DNA of 64,000 bases from an uncultured Actinomycetes bacterium (GCA_963767005.1 CAVYCN010000004.1:96001-160000); one strand, 5' to 3'. Positions 5,443-37,952 are shown, counted from the first letter of the stretch. The notes: a model not told the origin generated them from the letters alone. Made by a program: numbers and translations.

Positions 5443-6271
5443 TCACGCGTCGTAGGGCGGCAGCTTGAGGATGCGGCGCGCCTCGTCGGGCGTGGCGGCG
5501 TCGCGGTCCCACTCCTTCGCAAGACGCGCGACGCGCCCCACGAGCTCGGCGTTCTCCTTGGCGAGGACGCCCTTGTGCAGGAAGATGTTGTCCTCGAAGC
5601 CGAGGCGCACGTTGCCGCCCAGGGCGAGGGCGGTCATGGTTATCGCCATGTGCCAGCGGCCGATGCCGGTGCAGGTCCAGGTCGAGCCCGCGGGCAGCCG
5701 GTCCACCAGGAAGGCGAGGTTGCGCGGCTCGCCGCTCATCGAGCCCGGCACGCCGAGCACGAAGTCCCAGTGGGTGAGCGGCCCGGCCGGGCCGTACTTC
5801 TTGACCAGCTTCAGCGCGTTGTCGATCTGGCCCGCCTCGAAGATCTCGAACTCGGGGCGGACGCCCTTGGCCTGCATGCGCTGGTAGAACTCGCTCATCA
5901 GGGCGGTGTCGTTGAAGAACACGTCGTCGCCGAAGTTGGCCGTGCCGGTGGTCAGCGACGCCATCTCGGGACCGAGCTCGAGCGGCTGCAGGCGCTCGTC
6001 GGCGGTCATGCCCATGGCACCGCCGGTCGAGGTCTGGATGATGATGTCGGTGCGCTTGCGGATCTCCTCGATGGCGGCCGCGAAGACCTCCTTTGCCTGC
6101 GTCGGAGCGCCGGTCGCGTCGCGCACGTGCAGGTGGAACATGGCCGCACCGGCCTCGCGGCAGCGGGACGGCGTCGGCGCCGATCTCGACGGCGCTGACC
6201 GGCAGCGCCGGCTGCGCCTCTTTCGTCGTCTCGGCGCCCACGCCGGCGACGGTGATGATCAGCTTCTCCAT
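5443..6271 (-). pseudogene. kce: 3-keto-5-aminohexanoate cleavage enzyme (BKACE/DUF849) with a single extra base near 6165-6167 (frameshift or sequence error)
   Basis: N-terminus MEKLIITVAGVGAE..EIGADAV (ORF from 6271) continues in another frame as RCREAGAAMFHLHVRD..QTSTGG..RLGFEDN. Removing one C from GTC-C-CGC restores the full ORF. Confidence 0.85.
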
Positions 6272-6351
6272 CGGACCCTCTCTCAGGTCGTCGGTGTGCG
6301 CGCGGCGGCGACGATCCCCTCCACCCGCGCCTCCTCGCGTTCAGGCGGCCG

Positions 6352-7623
6352 CTACCGCTTCCAGGGATGCGACGCGGCCACGCAGGCGAGCGACTCCTCG
6401 ACCACGTCGAGGGCGCGCGTCAGGTCGGCCTCGGTGTGGCGGTAGCAGATGTACCAGTGGTGGTAGGGCTGCACGAACAGGCCGCGCCGGATGCACTGCG
6501 TGTAAAACTCGGTGCGGCGCTCCTTGTAGTGGTCGTCGACGTGGTCGAAGGTGAGGAACGGCATCGGCGGGATCCCGCTCCTGGTGACCGGCACGCCCGA
6601 GGCGTCGACGATCGCGCCGAGCCGCTCGAGGAACCGCGTGCCGCGCTCCCAGATCGCGTCCTGCACCTTCTCGCGCTCGAGGATGTCGAGGCACTTCATG
6701 CTGGCCGCCATCTCGAGGCTGTTGGGGAAGTACGTCGAGCTCAGGAAGGCGTCCTTCACGTAGACGCTCATGACCTCGCGCTTGCCGACCAGGGCGGCGA
6801 TCGAGTAGCCGTTGGCCATCGCCTTGCCGACGGTCGTCAGGTCGGGCGTCACGCCGTAGCGCTCGCTCGCGCCGCCCATCGACACGCGAAAACCGGTACG
6901 GATCTCGTCGAAGGTGAGCACCGCGCCGTTGGCGTGCGTGAGCTCCTTGACGGCCTCGAGATAGCCCGGCGGGGGGGCCATGACGGGCTTGGCCATGGGG
7001 TGTCCGACCGGGGTGACGATGACGCCGGCCACCTTGCCGGGGTTCTCGGCGAAGACGCGCTCGAGATCGGCGATGTCGCCGTACTCGAACTCCTTGGTGA
7101 GCTCCCAGACGGCCTGCGGCACGCCGCCGTGATGCTCGACGCACCAGTCGCCCCAGCCGTGGTAGCCGCAGCGCGCGACGACTTCGCGGCCGGTGAAGGC
7201 GCGCATGGCGCGCACGGCGGCGTTGGTGGCGTCGGAACCGGTCTTCACGAGGATCGTCTGCTCGCCGCAGGGCATGATGTCGGCGAGGCGCTGCTCGAGC
7301 TCGTTCTGCAGCGGCTGCACCAGGCTGAAGCAGAAACCCTTGTCCATCTGTGCCTTGGCGGCGTCGTTGATCTCGGGCTCGACGTAGCCGAGGATGATCG
7401 GCCCGTAGGCGCAGAGCATGTCGATGTACTCGTTGCCGTCGACGTCGAAGATATGGCCGCCCTCGCCGTGAGTGATGAAGACCGGGTATTCGCCGATCAC
7501 GAAGTTGTAGGGCCGGCGGATGCCGCCGACGCCGCCCGGGGTAAGGCGTTGCGCGTCGTCGAGCATCGACATCGACTTCGCGAGGTTCAGCTTGGGCGCG
7601 CTCTGCACGGATCGTGTGGTCAT
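6352..7623 (-). CDS. kat: Class III PLP aminotransferase, likely 3-aminobutyryl-CoA aminotransferase
   Basis: FDEIRTGFR, GKAMANG. From memory, PGGVGGIRRPYNF, FLSSTYFPNS and VQPYHH resemble Cloacimonas Kat rather than HemL. Directly upstream of kce. Confidence 0.75.
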   Translation of the reverse strand: MTTRSVQSAPKLNLAKSMSMLDDAQRLTPGGVGGIRRPYNFVIGEYPVFITHGEGGHIFDVDGNEYIDMLCAYGPIILGYVEPEINDAAKAQMDKGFCFSLVQPLQNELEQRLADIMPCGEQTILVKTGSDATNAAVRAMRAFTGREVVARCGYHGWGDWCVEHHGGVPQAVWELTKEFEYGDIADLERVFAENPGKVAGVIVTPVGHPMAKPVMAPPPGYLEAVKELTHANGAVLTFDEIRTGFRVSMGGASERYGVTPDLTTVGKAMANGYSIAALVGKREVMSVYVKDAFLSSTYFPNSLEMAASMKCLDILEREKVQDAIWERGTRFLERLGAIVDASGVPVTRSGIPPMPFLTFDHVDDHYKERRTEFYTQCIRRGLFVQPYHHWYICYRHTEADLTRALDVVEESLACVAASHPWKR

Positions 7624-7872
7624 GCGTGACTCCTTTTCATGCGAAAGATGCGTCGATTCTATGCCTTCCGCGAGGCCCGGCCGCCGCCCGCCGCGGCCGC
7701 CGCGGCGTTCGGCGGCCGGCCGTGCTGGACATCGCGGCGACCGGGTCGTTTCAGCCGGGGTCGGACAGGCGGCGGCGCAGCGCGGCGCGGCGGCGCAGCG
7801 CGGCGCGGCGCCGCAGGACCGCGGCGGCGCCGTGACCGCCGGGGGCCGGCGGCCGCGATGGACGGCACCGGC

Positions 7873-8808
7873 TCACGCCGGCGCCGTCCCGTCGGCGACC
7901 GCGTCGCGCTCGCCGAAGAGCACGACGAGCAGGCCCGCCAGGATGATGAGCGCGCCGCCCACGATGGTCCAGGTCGCCGGCCGCTGGCCGAGCAGCAGCA
8001 GGGCGTAGAGCGGGGCGCTCACCGGCTCGAGGTAGCCGAGGATCGAGGAGTGCTGCACGCGGATGCGGCTCACGCCCTCGGTCCACAGGGTGTAGGCGAG
8101 GGCCGTGCAGACCAGGCCGAGCAGGACGCCGATCAGCAGGTCGTGGCCGGACAGGGAGCGGCCGGCGCCCACCGTCTGCCACAGCGCGAGCGGCAGCAGG
8201 ACGACGGCGTCGATCACCATCTCGCTGATCACGATGGTGACGGCGCCGACGCCGCGATCGGTCAGGTCCTTGACGACGAGCTGGAAGGTGGCGTAGCCGA
8301 TGCCCGACACCGTGCCGGCCGCGAGACCGACCGTCGATACGCGCACGCCCTGCCCGAGGACGCCCGGCACGAGGATCGTCACGAGGCCGGCGAGGGCGAC
8401 CGCAAGCGCTACGTAGACCAGTGGCTCGGTGCGGACGTGGAGCAGGCGCGGCGCGGCGAGCGCCACGTACACGGGCGCCGCGAACTCGAGGAACATGCCG
8501 ATCGAGACGTTCGTGTCGCGCAGCGCGACGAAGAAGAGTAGCAGCGTGGCCGCGTCGACCAGACCCATGAGGAGCAGGCGCGGCGCGATCCCGGGACGTC
8601 GCACGCCGGCGAGCGGCCGGCGGCGCGCGAAGACGGCGCCCAGCACGACGCCGGCCGTCGCGAAGCGCACCACGAGCAGCGCGCTCTCGGGGGCGGTCGT
8701 CGAGTCGACGAGCGCCCCGATCGCCCCCATGATCAGGTACGACACACCGACCAGAGCGTAGCCGCGCAGGGCGTTGCGACGGGCCGTGACGGCGGTGTCC
8801 GGCGTCAT
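7873..8808 (-). CDS. EamA/DMT family transporter
   Basis: About 10 hydrophobic segments, ILGYLEPVSA motif; ATGA overlap with the upstream gene. Confidence 0.88.
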   Translation of the reverse strand: MTPDTAVTARRNALRGYALVGVSYLIMGAIGALVDSTTAPESALLVVRFATAGVVLGAVFARRRPLAGVRRPGIAPRLLLMGLVDAATLLLFFVALRDTNVSIGMFLEFAAPVYVALAAPRLLHVRTEPLVYVALAVALAGLVTILVPGVLGQGVRVSTVGLAAGTVSGIGYATFQLVVKDLTDRGVGAVTIVISEMVIDAVVLLPLALWQTVGAGRSLSGHDLLIGVLLGLVCTALAYTLWTEGVSRIRVQHSSILGYLEPVSAPLYALLLLGQRPATWTIVGGALIILAGLLVVLFGERDAVADGTAPA

Positions 8809-9731
8809 GGGTCGCCGGCCTCGACCGGCGCGGCCGTAGCGGGAGCGACGTCGCTCTCGCCCGCGCCGAAGCGCACTACGATCACGCCGGCGCCGATGAT
8901 GAGGACGCCGCCGGCGACGGTCCACAGCGACGGCACCTGGCTCAGGAAGACCAGGGCGTAGATGGGCGCGCTCACCGGCTCGACGTAGCCGATGATGCCG
9001 GAGTGCTGCACCTTGATGAAGCGCATGCCGTCCATCACCAGGCTGAAGGCGAGCGCCGTGCAGACGACGCCGAGATAGGCGGCGATGCCGAAGTTGCGCA
9101 GCGTGAAGTCGGCCGCCGGCGTCTGCAGCAGACCCAGCGGCAGCAGCACGGCGGCGGCCAGCACGCTCATCGCGAACACGATGGTCGTGGCGTGGACCTC
9201 GCGGCGCCGGAGCTGTTTGCCGCCGATCAGGTAGATCGAGTACATGACGCCGGCGAGCGTGGCGAAGAAGAGGCCGTAGGGCGTGAGCCGTACGCTTTCG
9301 CCGGTAAGGCCGGGCACCAGGATGAGGGCCATGCCGGCCAGGCCGACGCCGACGGCGGCGTAGACCGCGCCCTCGGTGCGCCCGCCCTCCAGGTGCGGAG
9401 CGACGAAGGCGATGTAGAGCGGCGCCAGGTACGACAGGAAGATGGCGACCGCGACGCCCGTCTGGCGGATGGCGATGAAGTAGCTCACGAGGTTCACCGC
9501 GAGGGCGACGCCCAGGATCAGCAGGCGCACGGTCGTGCCGCGGTCGGCGACCAGAGTGCGAAAGTCGCGACGCACGGCGACGACGACGCCCAGGACGAGG
9601 GCGGCGAACAGCATGCGCACCGCGACGAGCATGACCGAGGGCATGGTCGCGTAGGTCACGAAGACACCGATCGAGCCGTTGATGAGTCCGGCCGTGAGGG
9701 TCTCGCCATAGCCGCGCAGACGGTGGCTCAC
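8805..9731 (-). CDS. EamA/DMT family transporter
   Basis: VSHRLRGY..., IIGYVEPVSA motif; GTGA overlap with the upstream gene. Confidence 0.88.
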   Translation of the reverse strand: MSHRLRGYGETLTAGLINGSIGVFVTYATMPSVMLVAVRMLFAALVLGVVVAVRRDFRTLVADRGTTVRLLILGVALAVNLVSYFIAIRQTGVAVAIFLSYLAPLYIAFVAPHLEGGRTEGAVYAAVGVGLAGMALILVPGLTGESVRLTPYGLFFATLAGVMYSIYLIGGKQLRRREVHATTIVFAMSVLAAAVLLPLGLLQTPAADFTLRNFGIAAYLGVVCTALAFSLVMDGMRFIKVQHSGIIGYVEPVSAPIYALVFLSQVPSLWTVAGGVLIIGAGVIVVRFGAGESDVAPATAAPVEAGDP

Positions 9732-10654
9732 GCCGGCACCTCGGTCTCGGCCCTGCCCAGCGCGATGGCCAGGGCGCCGGCCGCGATAATCAAAGCGCCG
9801 CCGAGCCAGGTTGTGAGCGGCGGCCGCTCGGCGACCAGCAGGAGCGCCCACACCGGTGCCGTGACCGGCTCGAGGTAGCCGAGTATGCCGGCGTGCTCGA
9901 CCGGAACGAAGCGCAGGCCGTCCGTGAACAGGCTGAAGCACAGGGCTGTGTAGACGAGGCCCATCACGGCGACGATGGCCACGTCGCCGCCGGTGAGCCG
10001 GTAGTGGCCGGCGGCCGTCTGCCAGACCGCGATCGGCAGGATCAGCACGACCGAGCACACGCAGTAGAACAGGGTGTACGTGGTGCCGCGGATCCCCTCG
10101 CCCAGACCCTTGACCTGCAGGAGGGCGGCGGCGTAGCAGCCCCCGGCGACGAGGCCGCAGACTATGCCCGGCAGCACGTGCGATGAGCCGGCCAGCGTGA
10201 GCGTCGGCACGACGATCAACGCCATGCCGGCAACGGCGAGGACGATCGCCGCCGTGTCGCTGCGCTCGCGTCTGGTATGCAGCACCCAGGGCGCGACGAT
10301 CACGATGTAGACGGGCGCCATGTACTCGAGGGCGATGCCGATGGCCACGCCGGCCAGGCGGATCGCGGCGAAGTAGAAGAGCATCTCGCAGGCCACCGTG
10401 CAGCCGACCAGCACCAGGCGCCACGGGTGTCCCAAGCGGCGCACCTCGGCGACGCCGCCGGTGAGCAGGAACAGCGGCCCGAGCACGAGGCCGGCGAGCG
10501 CCATGCGCAGCACGAGCAGCAGGCTGGCCGGCGCGTGAGAGATCATGAGGAGCGCACCCGACGTGCCCAGGATCAGGGAGGCGCCGCCGATCTCGGCGTA
10601 GCCGCGCAGGCGGCGGCGCGCGCCGGCCGACAGCGGGACCGAGTCGATGGTCAT
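9728..10654 (-). CDS. EamA/DMT family transporter
   Basis: MTIDSVP..., ILGYLEPVTA motif, paralogous to the two downstream genes. Confidence 0.88.
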   Translation of the reverse strand: MTIDSVPLSAGARRRLRGYAEIGGASLILGTSGALLMISHAPASLLLVLRMALAGLVLGPLFLLTGGVAEVRRLGHPWRLVLVGCTVACEMLFYFAAIRLAGVAIGIALEYMAPVYIVIVAPWVLHTRRERSDTAAIVLAVAGMALIVVPTLTLAGSSHVLPGIVCGLVAGGCYAAALLQVKGLGEGIRGTTYTLFYCVCSVVLILPIAVWQTAAGHYRLTGGDVAIVAVMGLVYTALCFSLFTDGLRFVPVEHAGILGYLEPVTAPVWALLLVAERPPLTTWLGGALIIAAGALAIALGRAETEVPA

Positions 10655-10677
10655 GCGCGACCCCCTACGGCCGGCGG

Positions 10678-12462
10678 TCAGGAGAAGCCGAGCTCGGCGG
10701 TGAAGACCTCGTGGAACTGGCGGTCGGTGGCCAGGTCGAGGAACTCGATGCGGCGCGCGAGCTCGCTCATGGCGCGCCGCTCCTCGACGTCGATGAGCGC
10801 CATCTGCGCGCCCACGCCGGCGGCGTTGCCGACGAAGGCGATGCGCTCGCGCGGCACGTCGGGCAGCAGGCCGATGGCGAGCGCGTTGTCGACGTCGAGC
10901 TCGTTGCCGAAGGCGCCGGCCACCAGGACCTGGTCGAGCCCGGCGGGCTCGAGCCCGGCGTGGGCGAGCAGCAGCCTGCAGCCGCTGGCGATCGCCGCCT
11001 TGGCGAGCTGCAGCGAGCGCACGTCGTGCTGCGTGAAGACGATGTCGCCCTGCGGCCCCGTCGCGAGGACGTATTCGAGGCCCGGCCCGCTGTCGCTCGA
11101 GCGCACGCGGGCGTGCGGCTGCAGGCGACCGCTGGCGTCGACCACGCCGGCCGCCACGAGGCCGGCCAGCAGGTCGACCACGCCGGATCCGCAGATGCCG
11201 AGCGGCTCGCGCCCGCCGATCGCGCGCACGTCGCGCGGCTCGCCGTCGGGGCCCAGCGAGACGCGCTCGATCGCGCCCTCGACGGCCTTCACGCCGCAAC
11301 TGATCTGGTAGCCCTCGAAGGCCGGGCCCGAGGCGCAGCTCGTGACGATCACTCGACCCTCGTGGACCAGGGCGATCTCGGTGTTGGTGCCGATGTCAAT
11401 CGCGAGGCGGGGCGTCGTCGACTGGGCCAGGCGAGTGGCGGCGATCACGGCCAGACAGTCCGAGCCGACGAAGCCGGCGATCGGCGGCGGAAAGTGGACG
11501 CCGCCCTCGGGGTTCATGGCGAAGCCGAGCTCGGCGGCGCGCAGGGTGAGCGGCGCGGCGGTGGCCGGCGCGAAGGGCGCTGCGCCGAGACCGACGGCCG
11601 ACAGCCCCAGGGCCAGATGGTGCATGGCCGTGTTGCCCACGAGGGTCATGTCGTAGAGGTGACGCGGGGCGATCGCCTGGCGTGCGCAGAGCGTCGCGAG
11701 CAGCTTGTTGACGCCACCGCGCGCGGCGCGCCGCAGGTCGTCGAGACGGCCGTCATGGATCGCCTGGGTGAGACGGGTGACGACGTCCTCGCCGAAGCGC
11801 ATCTGCGGGTTCTCGAGCGCCTCCTGGTCGATCTGCCGCCCGCTCTCGAGGTCGAACAGGTAGGCGATGATCTTGGAGGTGCCGACGTCGACGGCCACGC
11901 CGAAGGCGGGGCCGTCGACGTCGGCCGTCTCGACGTCGACCGGGCGGCCTTCGTAGCGCGTCACGACGGCCTGGTAGCCGCCCGCGCGCAGCGTCGCGGG
12001 CAGGGTGCGGGTCACGCCGAGCGGCAGGTCGTAGTCGCCCAGGACGGCGAGCAGCCGCTCGCGGTCGGCGCGCGCGTCGGCGAGCGTCGGCGGCTCGAGG
12101 GTCACGACCTCGCGCGCGACCGCCGGATGCGGCTCGCCGGGGTGCAGGCGCGACGTCGTCAGGATCTGGCGGCGGCCCTGGGTGGCCCGTACCTCGATGC
12201 TCACCCGCTCGGAGAGCGGCACGGTCTGGCAGGCGAGCCGCCAGCCCTGCGCGAGGCGGCTCGCGGGCACCTTGCCGCGCTCGATCTCGGTGGGCTCGCT
12301 GAAGCTGCCGGCGCCGGTGCGCACCAGGCACTTGCCGCACGTGCCGCGGCCGGCGCAGTCGACGGGCACGTCGACGGCGCCGCTCGTGACGACGGCGAGC
12401 AGCGACTCGCCGTCTTCGATCTCGACGGTCACGCCGATGGGCTCGACGAACACCTTGGTCAC
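10678..12462 (-). CDS. ATP-dependent reductive activator of corrinoid proteins (RACo/RamA-like; 2Fe-2S + ASKHA, DUF4445)
   Basis: N-terminal CAGRGTCGKC..RLACQ ferredoxin; AVDVGTS, NPQMRFGEDV, DIGTNTEI, SCASGPAFEG, GICGSG, AGAFGN. Confidence 0.9.
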   Translation of the reverse strand: MTKVFVEPIGVTVEIEDGESLLAVVTSGAVDVPVDCAGRGTCGKCLVRTGAGSFSEPTEIERGKVPASRLAQGWRLACQTVPLSERVSIEVRATQGRRQILTTSRLHPGEPHPAVAREVVTLEPPTLADARADRERLLAVLGDYDLPLGVTRTLPATLRAGGYQAVVTRYEGRPVDVETADVDGPAFGVAVDVGTSKIIAYLFDLESGRQIDQEALENPQMRFGEDVVTRLTQAIHDGRLDDLRRAARGGVNKLLATLCARQAIAPRHLYDMTLVGNTAMHHLALGLSAVGLGAAPFAPATAAPLTLRAAELGFAMNPEGGVHFPPPIAGFVGSDCLAVIAATRLAQSTTPRLAIDIGTNTEIALVHEGRVIVTSCASGPAFEGYQISCGVKAVEGAIERVSLGPDGEPRDVRAIGGREPLGICGSGVVDLLAGLVAAGVVDASGRLQPHARVRSSDSGPGLEYVLATGPQGDIVFTQHDVRSLQLAKAAIASGCRLLLAHAGLEPAGLDQVLVAGAFGNELDVDNALAIGLLPDVPRERIAFVGNAAGVGAQMALIDVEERRAMSELARRIEFLDLATDRQFHEVFTAELGFS

Positions 12463-12571
12463 GTCTGTCTCTCCGGGTCGACGCGGCGGGCGGCGGCCCG
12501 CGGCCGCCGCCCGCCGTCTGCTTGTCTCGGGCGCGCCGGCCGAGCGGCGCAGCCTCGCGGGCTCCTGCGGG

Positions 12572-13858
12572 CTAGTCCTGCATGCGCGCCTTGCGGTCGG
12601 CGATCTTCTTCAGGCGCGCGTCCCAGACCTCGCTGAGCGTCGGGCCGTGATCGTCGTACATGCCGGCCACTCCGAGGCGCTGGCGCTCGGCCGCGCAGTC
12701 GGGGCAGTGGCACTCGGGCTCGACGTAGTCGTCGGGCTCGGTGTACTTGCTGATGACGCCCTCGTAGTTGCGCAGGATCACGTGGCCCGGAGCCTGCGAG
12801 ATCATGTACTGCGGCATGACCGGCGTCTTCCCGCCGCCGCCGACCGCGTCGATGATGTAGGTCGGCACCGCGAAGCCCGAGGTGTGGCCGCGCAGGCTCT
12901 CGGCGATCTCGATGCCCTTGGCCACGCTGGTGCGAAAGTGCGACGTGCCCTCGGCGAGGTCGCACTGGTAGAAGTAGTAGGGCCGCACGCGCGCCATCAC
13001 GAGCTTGTGGACGAGGCGCTTCATGACGTTGGCGCAGTCGTTGACACCGCGCATGAGCACCGTCTGGTTGCCGAGCGGGATGCCGGCGTCGGCCAGCATG
13101 GCGCACGCTCGGATGGAGTCTTCGGTGAACTCCTTGGGATGGTTGAAGTGCGTGTTCAGGAAGAGCGGATGGTACTTCTTGAGCATCGCGCAGAGCTCGG
13201 GGGTCACGCGCTGCGGGCAGACCACCGGTACGCGCGAGCCGATGCGCACGACCTCGACGTGGTCGATCGCGCGCACGCGGGCGATGATCTCCTCGAGCTT
13301 GTCGTCGGCGAGCACGAGCGGATCGCCGCCCGACAGCAGCACGTCGCGCACCTCGGGCGAGCGCTCGATGTACTTGATCGCATTGTCGAGCTCGGCCTGG
13401 GGGACGGCCTGCTCGTGGCTGCCCACGTGGCGCCGCCGGGTGCAGTGCCGGCAGTACATGGAGCACATCTCGGTGACGGTGAACAGCACGCGGTCGGGAT
13501 AGCGATGCGTGATGTGCGGCGTGGGCGAATCGACATCTTCGGAGACGGAGTCCTTGAGGTCTTCGGGGCGCACGACGAGCTCGGCCGACGTCGGCACGGC
13601 CTGCATGCGCACGGGGTCGTGCGGGTCGTCGGGGTCGATCAGCGAGGCGTAGTAGGGCGTGACCGACACGCGGAACTTGCCCATGCAGGCTTCGAGGTCG
13701 GCGCGCTGCTCGGGCGTGAGGTTCAGCACCTGCTCGAAGTCGGCGACCGTGGTCAGCCGGTTGGCCAGCTGCCAGTGGTAGTCGTTCCACTGCGCGTCGG
13801 TCACGTCGTTGAAGCGCGGGATGTCTTTCCAGTGTCGCGGTGTCGTCTGCACGGTCAT
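12572..13858 (-). CDS. kamA: Lysine 2,3-aminomutase (radical SAM)
   Basis: THRYPDRVL, CSMYCRHCTRRR, LSGGDPL, HTSGFAVP, DAVGGGGKTP, LRNYEG, C-terminal CHCPDC; GGAGG RBS before ATG 13858. Confidence 0.95.
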   Translation of the reverse strand: MTVQTTPRHWKDIPRFNDVTDAQWNDYHWQLANRLTTVADFEQVLNLTPEQRADLEACMGKFRVSVTPYYASLIDPDDPHDPVRMQAVPTSAELVVRPEDLKDSVSEDVDSPTPHITHRYPDRVLFTVTEMCSMYCRHCTRRRHVGSHEQAVPQAELDNAIKYIERSPEVRDVLLSGGDPLVLADDKLEEIIARVRAIDHVEVVRIGSRVPVVCPQRVTPELCAMLKKYHPLFLNTHFNHPKEFTEDSIRACAMLADAGIPLGNQTVLMRGVNDCANVMKRLVHKLVMARVRPYYFYQCDLAEGTSHFRTSVAKGIEIAESLRGHTSGFAVPTYIIDAVGGGGKTPVMPQYMISQAPGHVILRNYEGVISKYTEPDDYVEPECHCPDCAAERQRLGVAGMYDDHGPTLSEVWDARLKKIADRKARMQD

Positions 13859-13994
13859 GTCGTCTCCTCCTCGCGGCGCCCCCCCGGCGATCCGCACGTC
13901 GTCTTGCGTCGCCGTCCGGCCCCTGGCGAGAGGGACCGCCCGGCCGCGGCCGCCGCCTGCGCGGTGGCCGCCAGGTGCTGATCAGGTCGCACGA

Positions 13995-15347: not shown

Positions 15348-16749
15348 GGACCCTCCTCTCGGCGGCGTGCACGACCTCGGCGGTCGCGCGCCGCGTGGCG
15401 TCGTCGGGCGTGAAGGCCGGCGGCTCGCGTCGCAGGCTCTCCGTGCGAGCGCGCACGCGCTCCTTCAGCGTGGTCGCGCCCTCGGCCCGCCAGTGCTCGA
15501 ACTCGCCGCGCTCGAACAGCGCCGGCGCCCAGACGTCGGCGCCGTGCTCGCGGGTGTGGGCGAGGTCGGCGAAGCTGCCGCCGGGACCGACGGCCGCGAT
15601 CTCGTCGAGCGCGAGCGCGCGGCGGTCCGAACCGACGTCGTGCATGAGCGCGCGGGCGTACGAGACGAGCTCGTGGCCGAGCACGATGGTCTCGAACGAG
15701 CTCTGCCGCCCGGCCTCGAGGTAGCCCACGTCGTGCAGCAGGGTGGCCCGCGACAGGGCGCCCAGCACGGCCGAGATGGCCGCCTCGGCGGCCCACTGCT
15801 CGTCGAGCAGCTTGGCGTCGGACACCGCGGCGTAGGCGAAGCTCGGCAGCCCGTAGAAGTGGCAGAGGTCGCACGCGGCGGCGTTGCCCAGGTAGTGCTC
15901 GGGCGCGCCGAAGGCCTCGATCGCGGTGCGCGGATCAGCGGTGCCGCAGCCGACGCCCAGCACGAAGGGCGCGCCGGGCGCGACGAGCTGGTGCAGGACG
16001 AGCGCCGACAGCACCTCGGCGTTGCCGACCAGCACCGTGCCGGCGACGCTCACCGGCGCGCTCACGCCGGCCACGGGCGCCGGCGCGTACACGAGCGGGA
16101 TGCCTTCGACGGCGCAGGCCTGGATCTGGCGCAGGGCCGCGGCGGTGTGGCCGAGCGGCGGCGCCGAAAGCGCGTAGCAGGCGAAGCTCGCCGGCTCGCC
16201 GGCGAGGCCGGCGAGCTCGCGCATGAGCGGCAGCGAGCCGGCGTCGCGGGCGGTCGCCAGGAGCGGCTTGCGCGTGCCGGAGCACATGGCCGCGAAACGC
16301 GCCACGTCGCCTGTGGCCGCCGGCACGTCGGCCGGCAGGCCCATCGACATGACGAAGTCGATGCCGGGGAGGAGCTCGCAGAGGGCCGCCATGCCCTCGA
16401 CGTCGGCGCTCGTCGCCGGGCGGCGCTCGCCGCTGTCGGGGTCGCACACGTAGGCGCAGTCGGGACCGGTCCCGAACCAGCTCCGGCCGTCGGCCACCTC
16501 GATGCCGCTCGCGGCGGGGTCGCGTGAAGCCACGGTGCAGCGTCGCGGCGCGGCGGCGAGGGCCTCGCCGACGAGCGCCGCCGGCAGGCGCACGCGGTCG
16601 CCGTCGACGAGCGCGCCGGCGCCGGCGAGCAGCGCCCGCGCCGGCTCCCAGGGCATGTCGACGCCGGTCTCCTCGAGCAGGGCGAGGGTCGCCTCGTGGA
16701 CCTGCCAGCAGGCGTCGTCGTCCCAGACCACGAGGCGGGCGCCGGTCAC
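15340..16749 (-). CDS. MttB-superfamily (non-Pyl) corrinoid methyltransferase
   Basis: VHEATLALLEETGV, APVSVAGTVLVGNAEVLS, YGLPSFAYAAVSDAK, LHDVGYLE. Confidence 0.88.
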   Translation of the reverse strand: MTGARLVVWDDDACWQVHEATLALLEETGVDMPWEPARALLAGAGALVDGDRVRLPAALVGEALAAAPRRCTVASRDPAASGIEVADGRSWFGTGPDCAYVCDPDSGERRPATSADVEGMAALCELLPGIDFVMSMGLPADVPAATGDVARFAAMCSGTRKPLLATARDAGSLPLMRELAGLAGEPASFACYALSAPPLGHTAAALRQIQACAVEGIPLVYAPAPVAGVSAPVSVAGTVLVGNAEVLSALVLHQLVAPGAPFVLGVGCGTADPRTAIEAFGAPEHYLGNAAACDLCHFYGLPSFAYAAVSDAKLLDEQWAAEAAISAVLGALSRATLLHDVGYLEAGRQSSFETIVLGHELVSYARALMHDVGSDRRALALDEIAAVGPGGSFADLAHTREHGADVWAPALFERGEFEHWRAEGATTLKERVRARTESLRREPPAFTPDDATRRATAEVVHAAERRVHA

Positions 16750-18209
16750 GGAGCGGCGAGCTCCGCGTCGGCGCGCGCCACGATATGAGCGAGCTCGGCG
16801 GCGACGTCGTCGGGCAGCGGCTCGGGCCGGTGGTTGGCCAGGATGTCGTCGGCCGTCTCGGTCGCCCGCTCAAGGGCGCCCTTGCGGCCACCGGCGACCC
16901 AGACGTCGTAAGGCGTGCGGTCCCAGACCGCCGGGCGCCAGATCTCCTTCATGTGCTGCCGCGTGTGCTTCTCGGCGAGATAGGTGCCGTTGGGACCCAC
17001 CCTGGCGATCAGGTCGACCGCCAGCGTGTCGTCGTCGACGACCACGCCGCCGGCCACCTTCTGCACGATGCGATAGATCTCGGTCTCCATCACCATGTGC
17101 GGGTAGCTCAGGATCTTGGAGCCGTTCAGCAGGCCGCAGCCGTTCATCATGTCGGCGCCGGTCATGACGCTGGCGAAGGTCGACAGGGAGTCGTCGACCG
17201 CGGCCTGCCAGTCGGGCTCCTTGGCGCTCGTCGCCATCGTGCCCATGGCCATCGGCACGCCGTAGAAGTGAGCGAGCTGGGTGGCGCCGGCGGCCAGCAG
17301 GTAGTCCTCGGGGCCGGCCGTGTAGCCGCCGGTCTTCAGGTCCATGCAGCTCGGCGCGCCCGAGAAGAAGGCCGGGCAGCCCGGCCAGGCGAGCTCGAGC
17401 AGGACCACGCCCGACAGCGCCTCGGCGTTCTGCACGACGAGGTTGCCGGCCAGAGTGGCCGGCCCGGTGCCGGCCATCAGCGGCATGGGCATGAAGCCGC
17501 TCGCCAGGCCGTGCTCGGCGGCCACCAGGTTGGCCTCGAGGTTGGGACCGTCGTGGCCGAGGGGGTCGACGGCGCACTGCATGAAGCTGATGATGGGACG
17601 CTTGCGCAGCTCGGCGGTGCCACCGACGATGGCGGCCGCCATCTCGACGAGCAGCCGTGCCGGCCGCTCGCCCACCGTCGTCACGGCCTGGTAGTGCTTC
17701 GTCGTGTTGGTGAGCACGGCCTCGGAGTCGTGCAGCGCCTTGCTCGCCGGCGGCACGTCCTGCGAGGTGACGACCGGACCCCAGTAGTAGCTCACGTCGG
17801 GCAGGGCGTCGACGAAGCGCGCCGAGGTGGCGGCGTCGGCCTTCGTCGAGGGCCGCTTCTCGCCGGTGTGGTGGTCGTAGACGAAGACGCCGCTGCCGTC
17901 GTTGGACAGATAGCAGTGGCGCCGGTCGATCACGAGGTCGCAGGCGGGGTCGCGACCGGCCAGCACATAGCTGTCGGGCACCCGGCTCACGGCGTCCATG
18001 ACGACGGCGCGCGGCAGCCTGACGATCGCGGTCGCCCGGTCGACCCTGCAACCGTTGCTCTCGAGGACGTCGAGCGCCTTGTCGGAAGGGAAGCGCACGC
18101 CGGTCGTCTCGAGCACGTCGAGCGTGGCCTCGTGGATGCGCTCGAGGTCGTCGCTCGACAGGACGTCCCAGCCGAGACGGGGGGTGATGGGATTGATCCG
18201 GGGGCTCAT
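16746..18209 (-). CDS. MttB-superfamily (non-Pyl) corrinoid methyltransferase
   Basis: IHEATLDVLETTGV, PATLAGNLVVQNAEALSG, VGPNGTYLAEKHT. Confidence 0.92.
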   Translation of the reverse strand: MSPRINPITPRLGWDVLSSDDLERIHEATLDVLETTGVRFPSDKALDVLESNGCRVDRATAIVRLPRAVVMDAVSRVPDSYVLAGRDPACDLVIDRRHCYLSNDGSGVFVYDHHTGEKRPSTKADAATSARFVDALPDVSYYWGPVVTSQDVPPASKALHDSEAVLTNTTKHYQAVTTVGERPARLLVEMAAAIVGGTAELRKRPIISFMQCAVDPLGHDGPNLEANLVAAEHGLASGFMPMPLMAGTGPATLAGNLVVQNAEALSGVVLLELAWPGCPAFFSGAPSCMDLKTGGYTAGPEDYLLAAGATQLAHFYGVPMAMGTMATSAKEPDWQAAVDDSLSTFASVMTGADMMNGCGLLNGSKILSYPHMVMETEIYRIVQKVAGGVVVDDDTLAVDLIARVGPNGTYLAEKHTRQHMKEIWRPAVWDRTPYDVWVAGGRKGALERATETADDILANHRPEPLPDDVAAELAHIVARADAELAAP

Positions 18210-18302
18210 GGGCGGCGACCTCGCAGGTTCGCGGAAGGGGCCTGAAGCGTGGGGCGTCGGCCGGTCCGACTAGGCGTGCGACGGCGTCACACGCGCCTAG
18301 GC

Positions 18303-18361
18303 GATGACGACGGAGTCGATCATCGGCACGAGGCGCGCAGCGAAGCCACGCACGCCTGGGC
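18303..18361. repeat. Inverted single copy of the 59-bp repeat unit
   Basis: 54/59 identical to the reverse complement of the 2962 unit (manual alignment). Confidence 0.9.
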
Positions 18362-18511
18362 GGCGACGGCGAGGCCGATCGCCGGCACTACAGGCCGGAC
18401 GTGCGGCAGATGGCGATGATGGAGGCCGCTGGCACCCGCCGAGTCTATCAGACGCCCGCTGGAAGCGGCGACCGGTCGGGACGCGCGGCGCCACTCCGCG
18501 GACCCGGGCCT

Positions 18512-19981
18512 TCAGGCCAGCTCGCGGTCGGCCCGCGTCACGAGCTCGTCGAGGGCGGCGGCGGTGACGGCCGGCAGAGGCTCGGCGTGGTGGCCGGCCA
18601 GGATGCCGGCGGCGATGTCGGCCGCCGCGTCGCGAGCGCCGCGCCGGCCACCGTCGACCCAGGCGTCGTAGGGCGCGCGGTCCCACACCAGGGGGCGCCA
18701 GATCTCGGGCGCGTGGCGCCGGGTGTGGCGGTCGGCGAGGAAGGTGCCGCCGGGGCCGACGCGGTCGATGACGTCGAGGGCGAGCGCCTCGGCGTCGACC
18801 GTGACGCCCTCGGCCAGGCGCCGCACGATGCGGTAGACCTCGGTCTCCATGATCAAATGGGGATACGACAGGGTCCGGGAGCCGTCGAGCAGGCCGCAAC
18901 CGCTCATCATGTCGGCGCCGGCCAGCACCGAAGCCGCGGTCGAGAGGGCGTCGTCGACGGCCGCCTGCCAGCCCGGCTCCTTGGCGCCGGTGGCCATGGT
19001 GCCCATGTTGACCGGCAAGCCGAACGAGCGGCCGAGCTGGGTCGCTGCGGCCGCGAGGACGTCGTCCTCGGGGCCGCCGCCCGTGTACCCGCCGGTGCGC
19101 AGGTCCATGACGCTCGGCGCGCCGGCGAAGAACACCGGCGCGCCGGGGCTTGCGAGCTCGAGCAGCACGAGGTCGGCGAGCACGGTGGCGGCGTTGACCA
19201 CGAGGTTGCCGGCCAGCGTGGCCGGCGCGGTGCCGCAGCCCAGGGTGAGCGAAAGAAAGCCGCAGGGCACGCCGGCGGCGGCGCAGACGAGGCCGGCCTC
19301 GAGGCTCACCGCATCGTTGCCGAGCGGGTCGACCGGGCAGGCGATCAGGCTCACGAGCGGCCGGCGGCGCAACTCGTCGCGGCCGCCGCTCAGGGTGGCG
19401 GCCATCTCGACGAGCAGCCCGGTCGGCCGCTCCCCGACGCAGGTCACCGCCTGGTAGTGCTTGGTCGTGTTGGCGAGCACGGCCGCGGCTTCGTGCAGCG
19501 CGCGCGACGCGACGGGCGCGTCGCCGCCGGCGACGATCGGCCCCCAGCAGAACGCGACCTCGGGCAGCGCGTCACAGAAGCGCGCCGCATCGGCGACGTC
19601 GGCCAGAGTCGAGGGGCGCCGCTCGCCGCTTGCGGGGTCGACGACGGCGACGCCGCTCGCGTCGTTGGACAGGTAGCAGTGACGGCCGTCGAGCGGCAGG
19701 TCGCACGACGGGTCGCGCGCGCAGAGCGTGACGTCGCGGGGCGCGGCCGCGAGGGCCGACTCGACGAGCGGCTGCGGCAGGCGGGCGACCTCACGCCCGC
19801 GATCGACCGCGGCACCGTGCGCCTCGAGGACGTCGAGCGCACGCGCCAGCGGGAAGCGCACGCCGACGTCGGCCAGGACGGTGAAGATCGCCTCGCGCAG
19901 GCGGTCGAGGTCGCCCGCCGACAGGACCTCCCAGCGGCGGGCCGGGGCGATCGGCGCGATTCTGGGCGCGTTGCCGCTCAC
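18512..19981 (-). CDS. MttB-superfamily (non-Pyl) corrinoid methyltransferase, close paralogue of 16746-18209
   Basis: Shared RHCYLSND, NTTKHYQAVT, MGTMAT.AKEP.WQAAVDD.LST, LSYPH. Confidence 0.92.
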   Translation of the reverse strand: MSGNAPRIAPIAPARRWEVLSAGDLDRLREAIFTVLADVGVRFPLARALDVLEAHGAAVDRGREVARLPQPLVESALAAAPRDVTLCARDPSCDLPLDGRHCYLSNDASGVAVVDPASGERRPSTLADVADAARFCDALPEVAFCWGPIVAGGDAPVASRALHEAAAVLANTTKHYQAVTCVGERPTGLLVEMAATLSGGRDELRRRPLVSLIACPVDPLGNDAVSLEAGLVCAAAGVPCGFLSLTLGCGTAPATLAGNLVVNAATVLADLVLLELASPGAPVFFAGAPSVMDLRTGGYTGGGPEDDVLAAAATQLGRSFGLPVNMGTMATGAKEPGWQAAVDDALSTAASVLAGADMMSGCGLLDGSRTLSYPHLIMETEVYRIVRRLAEGVTVDAEALALDVIDRVGPGGTFLADRHTRRHAPEIWRPLVWDRAPYDAWVDGGRRGARDAAADIAAGILAGHHAEPLPAVTAAALDELVTRADRELA

Positions 19982-19982
19982 G

Positions 19983-20903
19983 CTACTGCGCCGGGTACGT
20001 GCCGGCCTTGAGCATGGCGAGCGCCTTCGTGAAGGTCGGCACGCCTGCCGGGCGCACGCTCACGTCGAGACCGTGGTACCAGCGCCGCGACAGGAGGGTG
20101 AGCTCGCCGCTCGCGCGCATGCTCCTGATGGCGCTGTCGAGCAGGGCGATGAGGTCGGCCTGGCCGGGCTGCACGGCGAAGGCCTCGGGCTGGTAGTAGA
20201 AGCCGGCGCCGGCGACCGTCACGGCGACGCCGCCGGCACGCATGGTCGCCGCCGTCGTGTCGGCCGTCATCGCGCCGGCCAGGCTGCCGTTGCCCACGTC
20301 GGCGACGGCGTCGGCGTCGGTCGTGTAGAGCTGGACCTGGACGCCGGTCGCCGCCTCGAGAAAGCGCTGGTAGGTGGTCGCGGCGCTCGCGCCGACGGCC
20401 TTGCCGGACAGTCCGGCCAGGGTCGTGATCGGCGTCGAGCCCGTCCGCACCAGGACCTGGGCCGCACTGTAGGTGTAGGGCGCCGTGAAGGCGAGTCCGC
20501 TCGCCGGCGCCGGGTCAGTGGCGATCGAGCTGATCGCCACGTCGTATTTCGCACCCTTGAGCGCCGCCGGCACGCGCGCCCAGTCGAGCTCGCGGATCTC
20601 GACGTCGACGTCGAGCAAGGTGGCCACCTGCTGCGCCACATCGACGTCGAAGCCGCTCCAGGCGCCCGTGGCGCCGACCGAGCTCTGTGGCGCGAACTCG
20701 GGGTCCTCGCCGACGACGAGGACGCCGCGCGCGGCGATCGTGGCGGCGAGCCCGGTCGGGCGGTGACCGAGGATCTGGGTGAACCGCTGGGCCGGCGTCT
20801 GGGCCGCGGCCTTGACGTGGCCGCCGCAACCCGCGAGGCCGACGACCAGCAGGGCCGCCACGACGGCGACCAGCGTCACGGCCGGCGCGCGGCCCGAGCT
20901 CAC
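19983..20903 (-). CDS. Polar amino acid solute-binding lipoprotein (SBP_bac_3)
   Basis: Lipobox LAGC; GFDVDVA, YDVAISS, FTAPY motifs; GTGA overlap with the upstream gene. Confidence 0.85.
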   Translation of the reverse strand: MSSGRAPAVTLVAVVAALLVVGLAGCGGHVKAAAQTPAQRFTQILGHRPTGLAATIAARGVLVVGEDPEFAPQSSVGATGAWSGFDVDVAQQVATLLDVDVEIRELDWARVPAALKGAKYDVAISSIATDPAPASGLAFTAPYTYSAAQVLVRTGSTPITTLAGLSGKAVGASAATTYQRFLEAATGVQVQLYTTDADAVADVGNGSLAGAMTADTTAATMRAGGVAVTVAGAGFYYQPEAFAVQPGQADLIALLDSAIRSMRASGELTLLSRRWYHGLDVSVRPAGVPTFTKALAMLKAGTYPAQ

Positions 20904-22237
20904 GCGAGGCCCGCCACCAGGCGCCGCAGCTCGGTGTCGAGACCGGGCTCGAGCGGCGGCGGCACATGGCTCGCGAGGATCTCGCGGGCGCGCTCGCGGG
21001 CGGCGGCGCGGGCGTCGTCGCCGAACGCGCGCAGCCCGCCCGCCACCTGCCGGGCCGCGCCGGCGGCGCCGGCCGCCGAGGTCACGGCGGCGGCGCGGGC
21101 TGCCGCCCGCGCCGCCGCCGTGACCTCGGTCCCCAGGACCAGCTCCTCGAACGAGAAGATGCGACCGCCGGCGACCATGCCGACCCCGGCCAGCATGTCG
21201 ACGCCGGCCAGCAGCGACAGGTACGTGGTCGTCACGTCGTCGATCACCGACTGCCAGCCCGGCAGCTTGGCCGCCGAGGCGTTCACGCCGCACTGGGTGG
21301 GCAGCCCGTAGAAGGCGCCGACGTTGCCGACGGCCGCGCCCATGAGCGTGTCCTCGGGCGCGCCGCCCGAGAAGTCGCCGGTGCGCAGGTCCATGACGCT
21401 CGGGATGAAGCAGACGAACACGGGGGCGCCGGGGAAGGCGGCCTGCACGGCGCAGACGCCCGACAGCGCCTCGGCGATGCCGACCACCAGCGAGCCGGCC
21501 ATCGTGATGGGGGTCGTCGAGCCACCTTGTGGCATGGTGACGAAGCCGATCGGCACGCCGGCCTGGGCGAACACCAGGGCGGCGGCGAGCGTGCCGTCGT
21601 CGTGGCCGAGCGGCGTGATCGTGCCGAGCAGGGCCGAGATCGGCGACGCGCGCCGCACGGCGCGCTCGCCGCCGGCGATGGCACGCGCCATCTCGACGGC
21701 GACGCTCGCCTGCTCGGCGTCGACGATGGTCACCGTCTGGGCGTGCTTGCCGGTGTTGGCGAGCACCTCGTAGATCTCATGCAGGCCGCGGCGCTCGACC
21801 GGACGGTCCTGGGCGCTCACCGTCGTCCAGCAGAAGTCGATCTCGTCGAGGGCGTCGACGATACGGGTGACGGCGGCGACGTCGGCGGCCGTGGTCGGCC
21901 GCTTGTCGCCCGTCTCTAAGTCGTAGATGTCGGTGGGGCAGCCGTCGGTCGTGAGCAGCGAGCGCGAGCCGGTGACCAGCGTGCGGTTGGCGCGCGCGCC
22001 CAGCGTCAGCCGCTCGGGCGCCTGGCCGACGAGCGCGCGCACGACGTCGGCCGGGATGCGCACGACCTGGCCCTCGGCCTGCGCGCCGGCCGCGACCAGG
22101 GCCGCCCTCGCCGGCAGGTACGGCACCGCGACGCCGACCGTGGAGAGCACGCGCAGGGCGGCCTCGTCGAGTCGCTCGAGGTCGCGCGCGGTCAGGACCT
22201 GGAGACGCGCCGGCGCGTCGGGTTCGGGCTGTCGCAC
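20900..22237 (-). CDS. MttB-superfamily (non-Pyl) methyltransferase with an altered, shortened C-terminus
   Basis: LDEAALRVLSTVGV, PITMAGSLVVGIAEALSG, MDLRTG; RBS AAGGAAGG before GTG 22237. Confidence 0.88.
   Translation of the reverse strand: MRQPEPDAPARLQVLTARDLERLDEAALRVLSTVGVAVPYLPARAALVAAGAQAEGQVVRIPADVVRALVGQAPERLTLGARANRTLVTGSRSLLTTDGCPTDIYDLETGDKRPTTAADVAAVTRIVDALDEIDFCWTTVSAQDRPVERRGLHEIYEVLANTGKHAQTVTIVDAEQASVAVEMARAIAGGERAVRRASPISALLGTITPLGHDDGTLAAALVFAQAGVPIGFVTMPQGGSTTPITMAGSLVVGIAEALSGVCAVQAAFPGAPVFVCFIPSVMDLRTGDFSGGAPEDTLMGAAVGNVGAFYGLPTQCGVNASAAKLPGWQSVIDDVTTTYLSLLAGVDMLAGVGMVAGGRIFSFEELVLGTEVTAAARAAARAAAVTSAAGAAGAARQVAGGLRAFGDDARAAARERAREILASHVPPPLEPGLDTELRRLVAGLA
21076..21129. 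repeat. Perfect 25-bp inverted repeat with 4-nt loop inside the mttB paralogue
   Basis: CCGAGGTCACGGCGGCGGCGCGGGC-TGCC-GCCCGCGCCGCCGCCGTGACCTCGG. Confidence 0.95.
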
Positions 22238-22316
22238 AGGCACCTTCCTTGTGGCCGTCGTCGATCGGTCGCGCCGCCGGGGCTGGGTCCGGGGCGAAGC
22301 CGCCCCATTCTCGCCT

Positions 22317-22793
22317 TCAGACGGCGATGGCTGCAACCCGCGGCGCGAGCATCGCGCGCAGGTCGGCGCTGCGGATCTTGAGCATCGTGGTCGTGGCGCC
22401 GCCGCCGCAGTAGACGACCGGCGGCTCGAACACGGCCGGGTCGGCGACGACCGGCATGTCCCCGTCGAGGCCGCAGGGCGGCAGCGCGCCCGGCCGGAAG
22501 CCGGTCAGCGACACGACCCGCGGCGCGGCGCAGGGGGCGACGGCGGCGCAGCCGAGCACGGCGGCGAGGCCGTCGGGGTCGACGCGCCGGTCGCCGGGCA
22601 CGAGGCACACCACAGGTCCGCCATCGGTGTCGACCAGGACGGACTTGACGACCTCGCGCGGCGCGACGCCGAGCAGGGCGGCGGCGTGGCGCGCGGTGCT
22701 GGACAGGGCGGGCAGCTGGACGATCTCGTGCGCCACGCCCCGCTCGAGCAGGAAGTTGTGGACGTCGCTGCAGGACCTCAAGGAAACGAGCAC
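22317..22793 (-). CDS. YbaK/EbsC (ProX) aminoacyl-tRNA deacylase family protein
   Basis: VVKSVLV (conserved Lys), TGFRPGALPPCG, VYCGGG. Confidence 0.85.
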   Translation of the reverse strand: MLVSLRSCSDVHNFLLERGVAHEIVQLPALSSTARHAAALLGVAPREVVKSVLVDTDGGPVVCLVPGDRRVDPDGLAAVLGCAAVAPCAAPRVVSLTGFRPGALPPCGLDGDMPVVADPAVFEPPVVYCGGGATTTMLKIRSADLRAMLAPRVAAIAV

Positions 22794-29354: not shown

Positions 29355-29717
29355 CCGCCTGCGGCGCCGCCCGGCGGCGGCGCTCCCACGACCGTGCGGA
29401 CCGGCCGGCAGCCCCCGCGCCGCTCCTCCACAACGCCCCTCTGCAGACCACTGCCGGCGCCCGTCCCTCAGCCTGTTGACGACCCTCTGGAGGGACGGTG
29501 GAGAATGTCGCACGCGGGGTCCAAACCGGATATGCTTGCCGCCTGCGGAGCCGCTCGCCGGCGGCACGAGGGGGTTTGTCCACACGCTCTCCACACCGCC
29601 GCCACAAGCCTCGCGTCACCGCAGGTGCAGGCAGACAGTCGGTTTCCCACACTGTCAACAGGGCCTACGACCATTACGAAGGTACCTCTACGGAGAGAGA
29701 GATAGTAAGGAGCCGGA
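29355..29717. other. oriC: Replication origin oriC (dnaA-dnaN intergenic) with DnaA boxes and DnaA-trio unwinding element
   Basis: Boxes include TTGTCCACA 29576 and CTCTCCACA 29587; tandem TTTCCCACA-CTGTCAACA 29643-29660 followed by GGGCC and TAC GAC CAT TAC GAA trios, the basal unwinding system layout. Confidence 0.85.
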
Positions 29718-32247: not shown

Positions 32248-32249
32248 GA

Positions 32250-32579: not shown

Positions 32580-32784
32580 TGCGGCGGTCACCTCGTCTCC
32601 CGCGGCACACAGGAGGACGAGGGGTCGGCGGCGAAGTGGACGATGATTGGACGAGCGCGCGCGACGGCGCGCCAGGAAGGACGGCGGCGATCTCGGAGAC
32701 AGCCCTGAGAGCTGGCTGCGCCGGACGCGACGCACACGCGCGGCGGAGCGGCGCGTCAACGTCACCCGGGGATCCGCGAAAAGA

Positions 32785-35322
<2,538 letters not shown>

Positions 35323-35471: not shown

Positions 35472-37952
<2,481 letters not shown>

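Follow-up and report, generated by a model that had tools for sequence, protein, structure and literature searches.

A cluster of methyltransferase and lysine-fermentation genes lies in a 64,000-nucleotide (nt) stretch of DNA from an uncultured anaerobic actinobacterium (CAVYCN010000004.1, contig stretch 96001-160000 of the host assembly; this whole stretch is hereafter the window). The host is a Thermoleophilia metagenome-assembled genome of 3.4 Mb in 19 contigs, with completeness rated 100%. Open reading frame (ORF) listing, translation, and family scans gave the minus-strand order ybaK-mttB1-SBP-mttB2-mttB3-mttB4-mttB5-kamA-RACo-eamA (three copies)-class III aminotransferase-kce, in which SBP is a solute-binding protein and the five mttB genes encode members of the MttB family without pyrrolysine (non-Pyl). 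An earlier note on this DNA had given the same gene names and order; the start of kce is at 6271, not 6141. With slightly better than even confidence, we read the block as one that would remove N-methyl groups from a methylated lysine or close derivative, the freed lysine being fermented via the Kat route. The features are as follows.

22317..22793, minus strand: ybaK/EbsC-like gene with a tRNA-editing domain (PF04073, 1.9e-26; TIGR00011 below cut-off)
20900..22237, minus strand: mttB1, non-Pyl MttB (PF06253; AlphaFold model)
19983..20903, minus strand: family-3 (polar amino acid) SBP (PF00497)
18512..19981, minus strand: mttB2, complete non-Pyl MttB, 61% identical to MttB3 (PF06253)
16746..18209, minus strand: mttB3, complete non-Pyl MttB with Ala at the Pyl position (PF06253)
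15340..16749, minus strand: mttB4, non-Pyl MttB of a different clade (PF06253)
13995..15347, minus strand: mttB5, MttB with decayed pocket motifs, directly upstream of kamA (PF06253)
12572..13858, minus strand: kamA, lysine 2,3-aminomutase (TIGR03820; PDB 2A5H, E 8e-170)
10678..12462, minus strand: RACo, reductive activator of corrinoid proteins (PF14574/17651/17650/00111)
9728..10654, minus strand: eamA1, EamA-type transporter (PF00892)
8805..9731, minus strand: eamA2, EamA-type transporter (PF00892)
7873..8808, minus strand: eamA3, EamA-type transporter (PF00892)
6352..7623, minus strand: kat, likely 3-aminobutyryl-CoA aminotransferase, HemL-like class III (Atlas match)
5443..6271, minus strand: kce (BKACE gene), frameshifted in the assembly (family scan; relatives' alignment)
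63186..64000, minus strand: kdd, 3,5-diaminohexanoate dehydrogenase, running past the window end (NCBIfam, above cut-off)

Many of these genes overlap (mttB1/SBP, mttB3/mttB4, eamA1/eamA2, and eamA2/eamA3 by 4 nt each; mttB4/mttB5 by 8 nt), and gaps of 302 nt and 249 nt separate mttB2 from mttB3 and eamA3 from kat. The start of mttB1 is most likely the GTG at 22237, and the ybaK-like gene, whose presence varies among relatives, is probably outside the pathway. In a scan for promoters and terminators, the sequence did not exceed its shuffled versions (promoter-like sites, 0; terminator-like sites, 3 against 2.4 expected). A search of sequencing runs turned up no RNA run with this DNA and no run of any kind with half of its words (best share, 0.13).

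MttB paralogues, their pockets, and a predicted pair

Thousands of non-Pyl MttB proteins are without known substrate, which is an obstacle to reading MttBs in metagenomes (PMC13080624). The five MttBs of the block score 156.6 to 311.6 bits against PF06253 (cut-off, 25) and 174 to 462 against TIGR02369, the model of the Pyl-type trimethylamine methyltransferase, under its cut-off of 525. None of the five has an in-frame TAG, which agrees with their initial description as non-Pyl enzymes, and MttB3 aligns with Ala at the Pyl334 position. The 41 PF06253 matches of the host genome correspond to about 38 genes. Of these, 7 contain one in-frame TAG, and pylS is present. Because the genome carries about 38 mttB genes, a run of five is unremarkable by count; what is remarkable is its conservation beside kamA.

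The pockets of the block MttBs depart from that of the glycine betaine-type enzyme MtgB. By sequence alignment, Tyr97, Arg312, His348, and Phe356 of MtgB correspond to Gly, Ala, Asn, and Ser in MttB3, and MttB4 retains just the His of these four. The equivalents of Arg312, a carboxylate-binding residue, are Gln, Asn, Ala, Phe, and Ala in MttB1 to MttB5, at a position conserved in the characterized acidic-quaternary-amine demethylases MtcB, MtpB, MtyB, and MthB (PMC13080624). Every aligned sequence of the MttB1/2/3 subclade has Asp104, Trp143, Gln174, Glu301, and Asp302 (MttB3 numbering), and all but two have Lys or Arg at 365 (alignments of 17 MttB1, 29 MttB2, 45/78 MttB3, 20 Bacillota, and 31 Chloroflexota sequences). 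The conserved Asp of the subclade aligns one residue before MtgB Tyr97. MttB2 carries the same pocket signature as MttB3; MttB4 belongs to another clade and is missing from the clusters of many relatives. These alignments support pockets that are not of the betaine type, in keeping with the non-betaine substrate first proposed: without Arg312, the substrate would not be expected to have an acidic group close to its N-methyl, and a long basic amino acid would suit a pocket that is acidic and has its basic residue displaced. The missing Arg312 also speaks for a methylated amine that is basic but is not methyl-lysine itself (a lysine derivative with an N-alpha substituent or a beta-amino group, or a methylated polyamine, guanidine, or ornithine), whose products would join lysine or amine catabolism, an alternative that we consider unlikely and to which we return below.

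Two of the paralogues appear to have divided the functions of one enzyme. A C-terminal loop of MttB (residues 396-452) has two roles, holding the dimer together and giving the partner subunit its docking site for the corrinoid protein (PMC9842639). The loop region has 24 residues in MttB1 vs 50 to 56 in the other 36 host MttBs extracted, leaving MttB1 the sole loop-less protein of 37. Loop motifs are absent in 25/25 distinct MttB1 orthologues, 20 of which have all four strict pocket patterns, and MttB1 itself keeps the pocket signature (Asp, Trp, Gln, Glu-Asp, Arg). An AlphaFold model of MttB1, the one block MttB covered by folding (pLDDT, 72.7), has the MttB/MtgB TIM-barrel fold (TM, 0.80 to 0.82 to 2QNE, 9YCE, and 7XCL). 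The losses in MttB5 are complementary: its pocket motifs are gone, and its loop region is best conserved (0.78 to 0.80 vs 0.62 to 0.68 in the barrel). Among 50 genomes of the family, 43 have both genes, 3 have neither, and 4 have one only (assigned by place and by eye; the four single-gene genomes are fragmented drafts of 370-590 and 290 contigs). A relative rated 100% complete (G024) has the minimal run mttB1-SBP-permease-ATPase-mttB5-kamA-RACo-kat-kce, spanning two contigs that overlap by about 60 identical bases, and the block of another relative (G584) keeps mttB1 and mttB5 without mttB2 or mttB3. The predicted arrangement is a heterodimer in which MttB1 would be the catalytic subunit and MttB5 a non-catalytic docking subunit; complementary losses, co-occurrence, and retention of the pair where mttB2 and mttB3 are gone make MttB1 the likely partner of MttB5. 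Literature searches, with subscription papers mostly outside their coverage, found no description of an MttB heterodimer. The pair would be a clean case of a homodimeric enzyme splitting its jobs over two genes, and it predicts that paralogues expressed singly would wrongly read as inactive.

Other members of the family lie nearby or elsewhere. The window holds a sixth mttB, of the pyrrolysine type (49335-50858, plus strand), with one in-frame TAG at 50370-50372 and then a PYLIS_3 match (50370-50469), which together with one tRNA was all that the Rfam scan gave. The host genome has several mtbB matches and, on contig C19 (C19:116184-117418), another mttB that is broken into two frames, possibly, as in kce, by a single-base assembly error. 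At C2:47844-53708 (L228), the sister group of MttB1/2/3/5 is represented by two MttBs, with a DokD/LysA-like decarboxylase and a racemase-like gene as neighbors, a second module of MttB and basic amino acid genes; the arrangement at locus L090 resembles it. At four loci (L181-L184), a sister-clade non-Pyl MttB stands with a Pyl mtbB and a Pyl mttB behind a sigma-54 regulator and is a candidate non-Pyl enzyme for the methylamine stage.

Lysine-fermentation, corrinoid, and transport genes

KamA scores 588.8 bits against TIGR03820 (cut-off, 525.4), is encoded by a single gene copy in the host genome, and in the 2A5H alignment keeps the radical S-adenosylmethionine cysteines and the equivalents of Arg134, Asp293, Asp330, and Lys337. 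The earlier note had placed kamDE elsewhere, and these genes do lie just beyond the window: kdd begins inside the window end and is followed by thiolase-kamE-kamD-kamB, at most 5.3 kb past that end, with NF052381, NF052384, NF052385, and NF052386 above cut-off for this region. Two queries did not find kal in the host genome. The kat candidate has '3-aminobutyryl-CoA aminotransferase' as its top Atlas cluster (0.99; HemL-type clusters, 0.98) and is 66% identical to a gene in the Bacillota run kamA-kdd-(dehydrogenase-like gene)-kat-kce, a value for that gene and not for the characterized Cloacimonas Kat, against which more than about 60% identity would mark Kat orthology. In kce there is one extra base near 6160-6170 vs the intact gene in three aligned relatives (a fourth aligned sequence proved to be another gene and was set aside), and an intact orthologue scores 378.4 against the NF052387 cut-off of 382. 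The Kat-variant set (kamA, kamDE, kdd, kce, and the likely kat) is present, split over two loci, and fits the Kat route of lysine fermentation (PMC3149608).

The split itself could be read another way. With kamA, kat, and kce in the block and kamDE and kdd about 41 kb or more away, KamA, the aminotransferase, and BKACE might bypass KamDE and convert trimethyllysine directly to gamma-butyrobetainyl-CoA, with the resulting betaine then demethylated by the MttBs as by MtyB; slight changes near the KamA site (Pro332 to Val or Ile in Thermoleophilia) lean the same way. Yet kamDE, kdd, and kamB are all there, kamD occurs in 46/50 family genomes, intact orthologues of Kce have scores at the level of its cut-off, the aminotransferase looks Kat-like, and the MttBs lack the Arg that MtyB keeps, so that we hold this route to be very improbable.

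Further metabolic genes were seen at these and other loci. In one same-genus genome, a 3-hydroxyacyl-CoA dehydrogenase gene lies between kat and kce (L006 12740-13741), apparently also in L003 near 2-352. Saccharopine-dehydrogenase-family genes recur near MttB and lysine genes (window 44798-46009, minus strand; L088 1625-2815; L211). The host also has an ornithine-fermentation locus, ord-ortB-oraE (fused, 854 amino acids)-Or-4, with an Orr-like racemase nearby (C2:206689-221284; L229).

The RACo gene of the block is the only PF14574 match of the host genome. A genome search for the corrinoid proteins and the methyl-tetrahydrofolate (methyl-THF) methyltransferase, which had been expected outside the window, found 16 B12-binding_2 matches and one gene 44% identical to methyl-THF:corrinoid methyltransferase; FTHFS and MTHFR are also encoded. 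Judged by genes alone, all parts of a corrinoid-dependent methyltransferase system (corrinoid proteins, second methyltransferase, and activator) are encoded. Acetogenesis by the full Wood-Ljungdahl pathway was not adopted, as a CdhC match is absent in the host genome.

Import through the SBP of the window, part of the original proposal, is doubtful in the host. In alignment this protein lacks the carboxylate-binding Arg of family-3 proteins, and the second SBP, permease, and ATPase that relatives' loci add are missing from the host locus. The second SBP of relatives has the carboxylate Arg in most copies. In family-3 proteins such as the LAO-binding protein, the Arg binds the carboxylate and an Asp binds the alpha-amino group.

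Linkage within and beyond the Thermoleophilia

Conservation of the mttB-kam linkage in relatives, on which the earlier note had made its case depend, is complete in the family of the host: in 49/49 scorable loci, kamA follows mttB3 downstream at a distance of no more than 6 kb. Scoring covered loci, collected by MttB3 search, with kamA or with a flank of 4.5 kb or more, and left out shorter ones. Of 24 genomes of the same family, 20 have kamA, as against only 2 with weak matches among 16 genomes of other families in the class, and the 50 family genomes include 39 with mttB3, 46 with kamD, and 45 with mttB1. Many of the clusters also carry a corrinoid gene, Pyl-type mttB or mtbB, a racemase, the second SBP, a permease, and an ATPase.

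Neighborhood comparison, the check proposed for a shared linkage, found the same MttB subclade beside lysine genes in differently ordered loci of Bacillota and Chloroflexota. The closest relatives of MttB3 outside the Thermoleophilia are 53% identical, and the Bacillota order is NhaC-GNAT-kamA-mttB3-corrinoid-mttB'. kamA is in 11 of 21 loci of the Bacillota MttB3 branch, most others being short. Three further Bacillota genomes from a 401-genome sample have kdd-kal-kce-thiolase...kamA-mttB3 (L178), corrinoid-mttB'-methyl-THF methyltransferase-kamA-mttB3-corrinoid (L179), and corrinoid-mttB3-mttB' about 4 kb from kce-kal-kamE-kamD (L180). The Chloroflexota locus L151, whose protein clusters are named Thermoflexia/Anaerolineae, reads corrinoid-mttB3-mttB'-kamA-eamA, and L170 and L154 are similar. 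In one Bacillota class, kamD occurs in 15/18 genomes with MttB3 vs 22/110 without, counts that include related genomes and are thus not independent. A tree constrained to place all MttB-linked KamA proteins in one clade was rejected (AU p 0.024; 26/52 sequences, fast search), which suggests more than one origin or losses. As controls, the sister mttB_88a clade has kamA in 0/4 loci, its neighbors being Pyl methylamine methyltransferases, and the ornithine-fermentation locus of the host has no mttB within about 90 kb.

Two candidate extensions were set aside: L089 was rejected as a further phylum because it shares a GTDB class with the Bacillota locus L088, and the two are counted as one lineage; osmolyte synthesis (AblAB) was not adopted for the Bacillota GNAT-kamA pair, the GNAT proteins being 157-182 amino acids long with no NCBIfam match at 1e-30 or 1e-45. 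Elsewhere, in L215, L220-L224, and L226, the run NhaC-GNAT-kamA-mttB' is preceded upstream by genes for a Pyl dimethylamine methyltransferase and a corrinoid protein, a layout that suggests dimethylamine release or use near lysine catabolism. In L187, L190, and L195, two kamA genes with similar active-site motifs flank a sigma-54 regulator at a spacing of about 4-5 kb, and mttB3 adjoins the second. On the host contig, dnaA, dnaN, and recF, then two long ORFs resembling gyrB and gyrA by eye, occupy 27876-37952 of the window, so that the block is about 5 kb from the likely replication origin.

Several observations weigh against a route from methylated lysine to lysine. In the assembly, kce is frameshifted. 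The flanking moeA, sortase, and GGDEF genes, near dnaA, are syntenic too, so the synteny within the family is partly inheritance. In the Chloroflexota-type branch, kamA is near only 3 of 32 loci (2 of the 10 with at least 3 kb on each side), other neighbors being peptide transporters, peptidases, and oxidoreductases. Of 20 kamA loci in the Bacillota class, picked as a negative control mostly from genomes without MttB3, 10 carry MttB' directly downstream, which makes it the commoner kamA neighbor there and means that the control was not negative; 7 of these 10 MttB' loci have a Pyl dimethylamine methyltransferase (mtbB) and a corrinoid gene upstream, and MttB' is without a close match in the host genome (best, 35%). 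Since MttB' also follows kamA, two MttB clades accompany it, one common to the window. A 1.9-Mb relative with no MttB (G018) keeps SBP-racemase-kamA-RACo-eamA-kce, with RACo directly behind kamA and no kat match in that stretch (L016, C4:82500-102400). The link between RACo and kamA is therefore independent of MttB, and RACo in this genome may serve another client, possibly unrelated to MttB. In relatives' SBP, the usual alpha-amino Asp position is Ala, Asp, or Ser, mostly Ala, and the SBP2 type never has Asp in register; such a protein would seem to fit a plain alpha-amino acid poorly, and the Ala leaves room for an N-alpha-substituted or beta-amino ligand.

Part of this evidence would be explained if the block were a general hub of the methylamine-methyltransferase network, with lysine genes as neighbors by inheritance or shared regulation and no shared substrate. 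The single RACo must serve about 38 MttBs, Pyl-type mttB or mtbB and corrinoid genes insert into the island of relatives, kamA and RACo stay together in G018 without MttB, and most Chloroflexota-type loci are without kamA. We judge such a hub rather improbable, given that members of this one MttB subclade adjoin lysine genes in three phyla and at least four gene orders, that linked KamA is not one clade, and that the ornithine locus attracts no mttB.

The alternative of another basic amine draws on the missing Asp of relatives' SBP and on the gene content of larger islands, which hold an agmatine-type deiminase, a carbamoyltransferase, an isochorismatase-family amidase, an extra class III aminotransferase, and an Orr-like racemase; the host sister MttB pair adjoins the DokD/LysA-like decarboxylase, and a gene of the amidinotransferase/deiminase family occurs at one locus of the Bacillota branch. 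The distribution of these additions is patchy, however, whereas kamA is the constant neighbor, and G024, with its minimal cluster, lacks them all; the carboxylate Arg of relatives' SBP favors an amino acid over a polyamine.

Proposed pathway and known systems

KamA and KamDE bind the substrate amine as an aldimine of pyridoxal phosphate, so a methylated amine would have to be freed first, and methylated lysines arise from protein turnover. In the pathway that we propose, uptake would be through the amino-acid ABC transporter carried by relatives' block or through the EamA proteins. The predicted MttB1:MttB5 heterodimer would demethylate the substrate, MttB1 supplying the substrate barrel and MttB5 the loop for dimer formation and corrinoid docking, and MttB2, MttB3, and MttB4 would be dispensable additions that possibly handle other methylation states. 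The methyl group would pass from a corrinoid protein, encoded elsewhere in this genome and in the block in many relatives, to tetrahydrofolate, and RACo, by analogy with MtgB/MtgC/MtgA, would restore Co(I). Lysine would then enter the known pathway, being converted to beta-lysine by KamA and onward by KamDE, Kdd, Kce, Kat, and thiolase. That the substrate is a methyl-lysine is suggested by gene context and seems to us a little more probable than its contrary.

The overall proposal of the earlier note has in part held: the linkage, the missing parts, and the non-betaine pockets stand, stepwise demethylation in the form given there finds no support, and SBP import in this genome is doubtful. The idea of one paralogue per methylation state fares poorly, since the pocket of MttB5 is decayed, MttB4 is of another clade and often absent, and the complete relative keeps only mttB1 and mttB5 in its cluster. 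MtyB is weak on a secondary amine and inactive on the tertiary product (PMC8604678); full demethylation of trimethyllysine would, given these limits, need new chemistry.

The literature searches described above found no link between MttB and trimethyllysine, no anaerobic route for methylated lysines, and no description of this pathway, which the earlier note likewise had not known to be described. Wetland Actinobacteriota, including the genus RBG-16-64-13, are reported to be among the most active bacterial methylotrophs and to express both Pyl and non-Pyl mttB; the word lysine is absent from the portion of that study available to us (PMC10805028). The block provides a defined MttB subclade, a pocket signature, and a specific substrate candidate. 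In its fullest form, which we put forward tentatively and at somewhat less than even probability, the new subclade would be an anaerobic demethylase for free N-methyl-lysines from methylated proteins, tied to lysine fermentation in at least three phyla, with the first heterodimeric MttB core in Thermoleophilia (a catalytic loop-less subunit and a dead loop-bearing one). If true, this would bring tertiary and secondary amines, besides quaternary ones, within the chemistry of non-Pyl MttBs.

Compared with known systems, the block seems best read, on balance, as a branch of the corrinoid methyltransferase system that serves a new substrate and feeds Kat-type lysine fermentation. Like the non-Pyl MttB systems of Desulfitobacterium hafniense (MtgB/MtgC/MtgA/RamA-like) and Eubacterium limosum (MtpB, MtcB, MtyB, and MthB with MtqC/MtqA/RamQ), it has the same fold (TM, 0.81 to 0.82 to 2QNE and 9YCE) without pyrrolysine, and its genome combines many paralogues with one activator and one methyl-THF methyltransferase. 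Unlike MtgB, its enzymes have Tyr97, Arg312, His348, and Phe356 replaced (by Gly, Ala, Asn, and Ser in MttB3) and an acidic pocket signature, and the block is tied to lysine fermentation; unlike the solved MtgB and MttB homo-oligomers, it includes one loop-less and one pocket-less paralogue. It differs from the MttB-MttC of Methanosarcina barkeri (PDB 7XCL/7XCN; PMC9842639) in having no Pyl334 (Ala in MttB3), and the barrel and loop functions of that MttB appear divided here over mttB1 and mttB5. As in the Kat variant of lysine fermentation (PMC3149608), all genes are present, kat as a likely one, kal is not found with two queries, and a HemL-like aminotransferase stands beside kce; unlike that variant, the genes form two loci, one joined to the methyltransferase block, and kce is frameshifted in the assembly.

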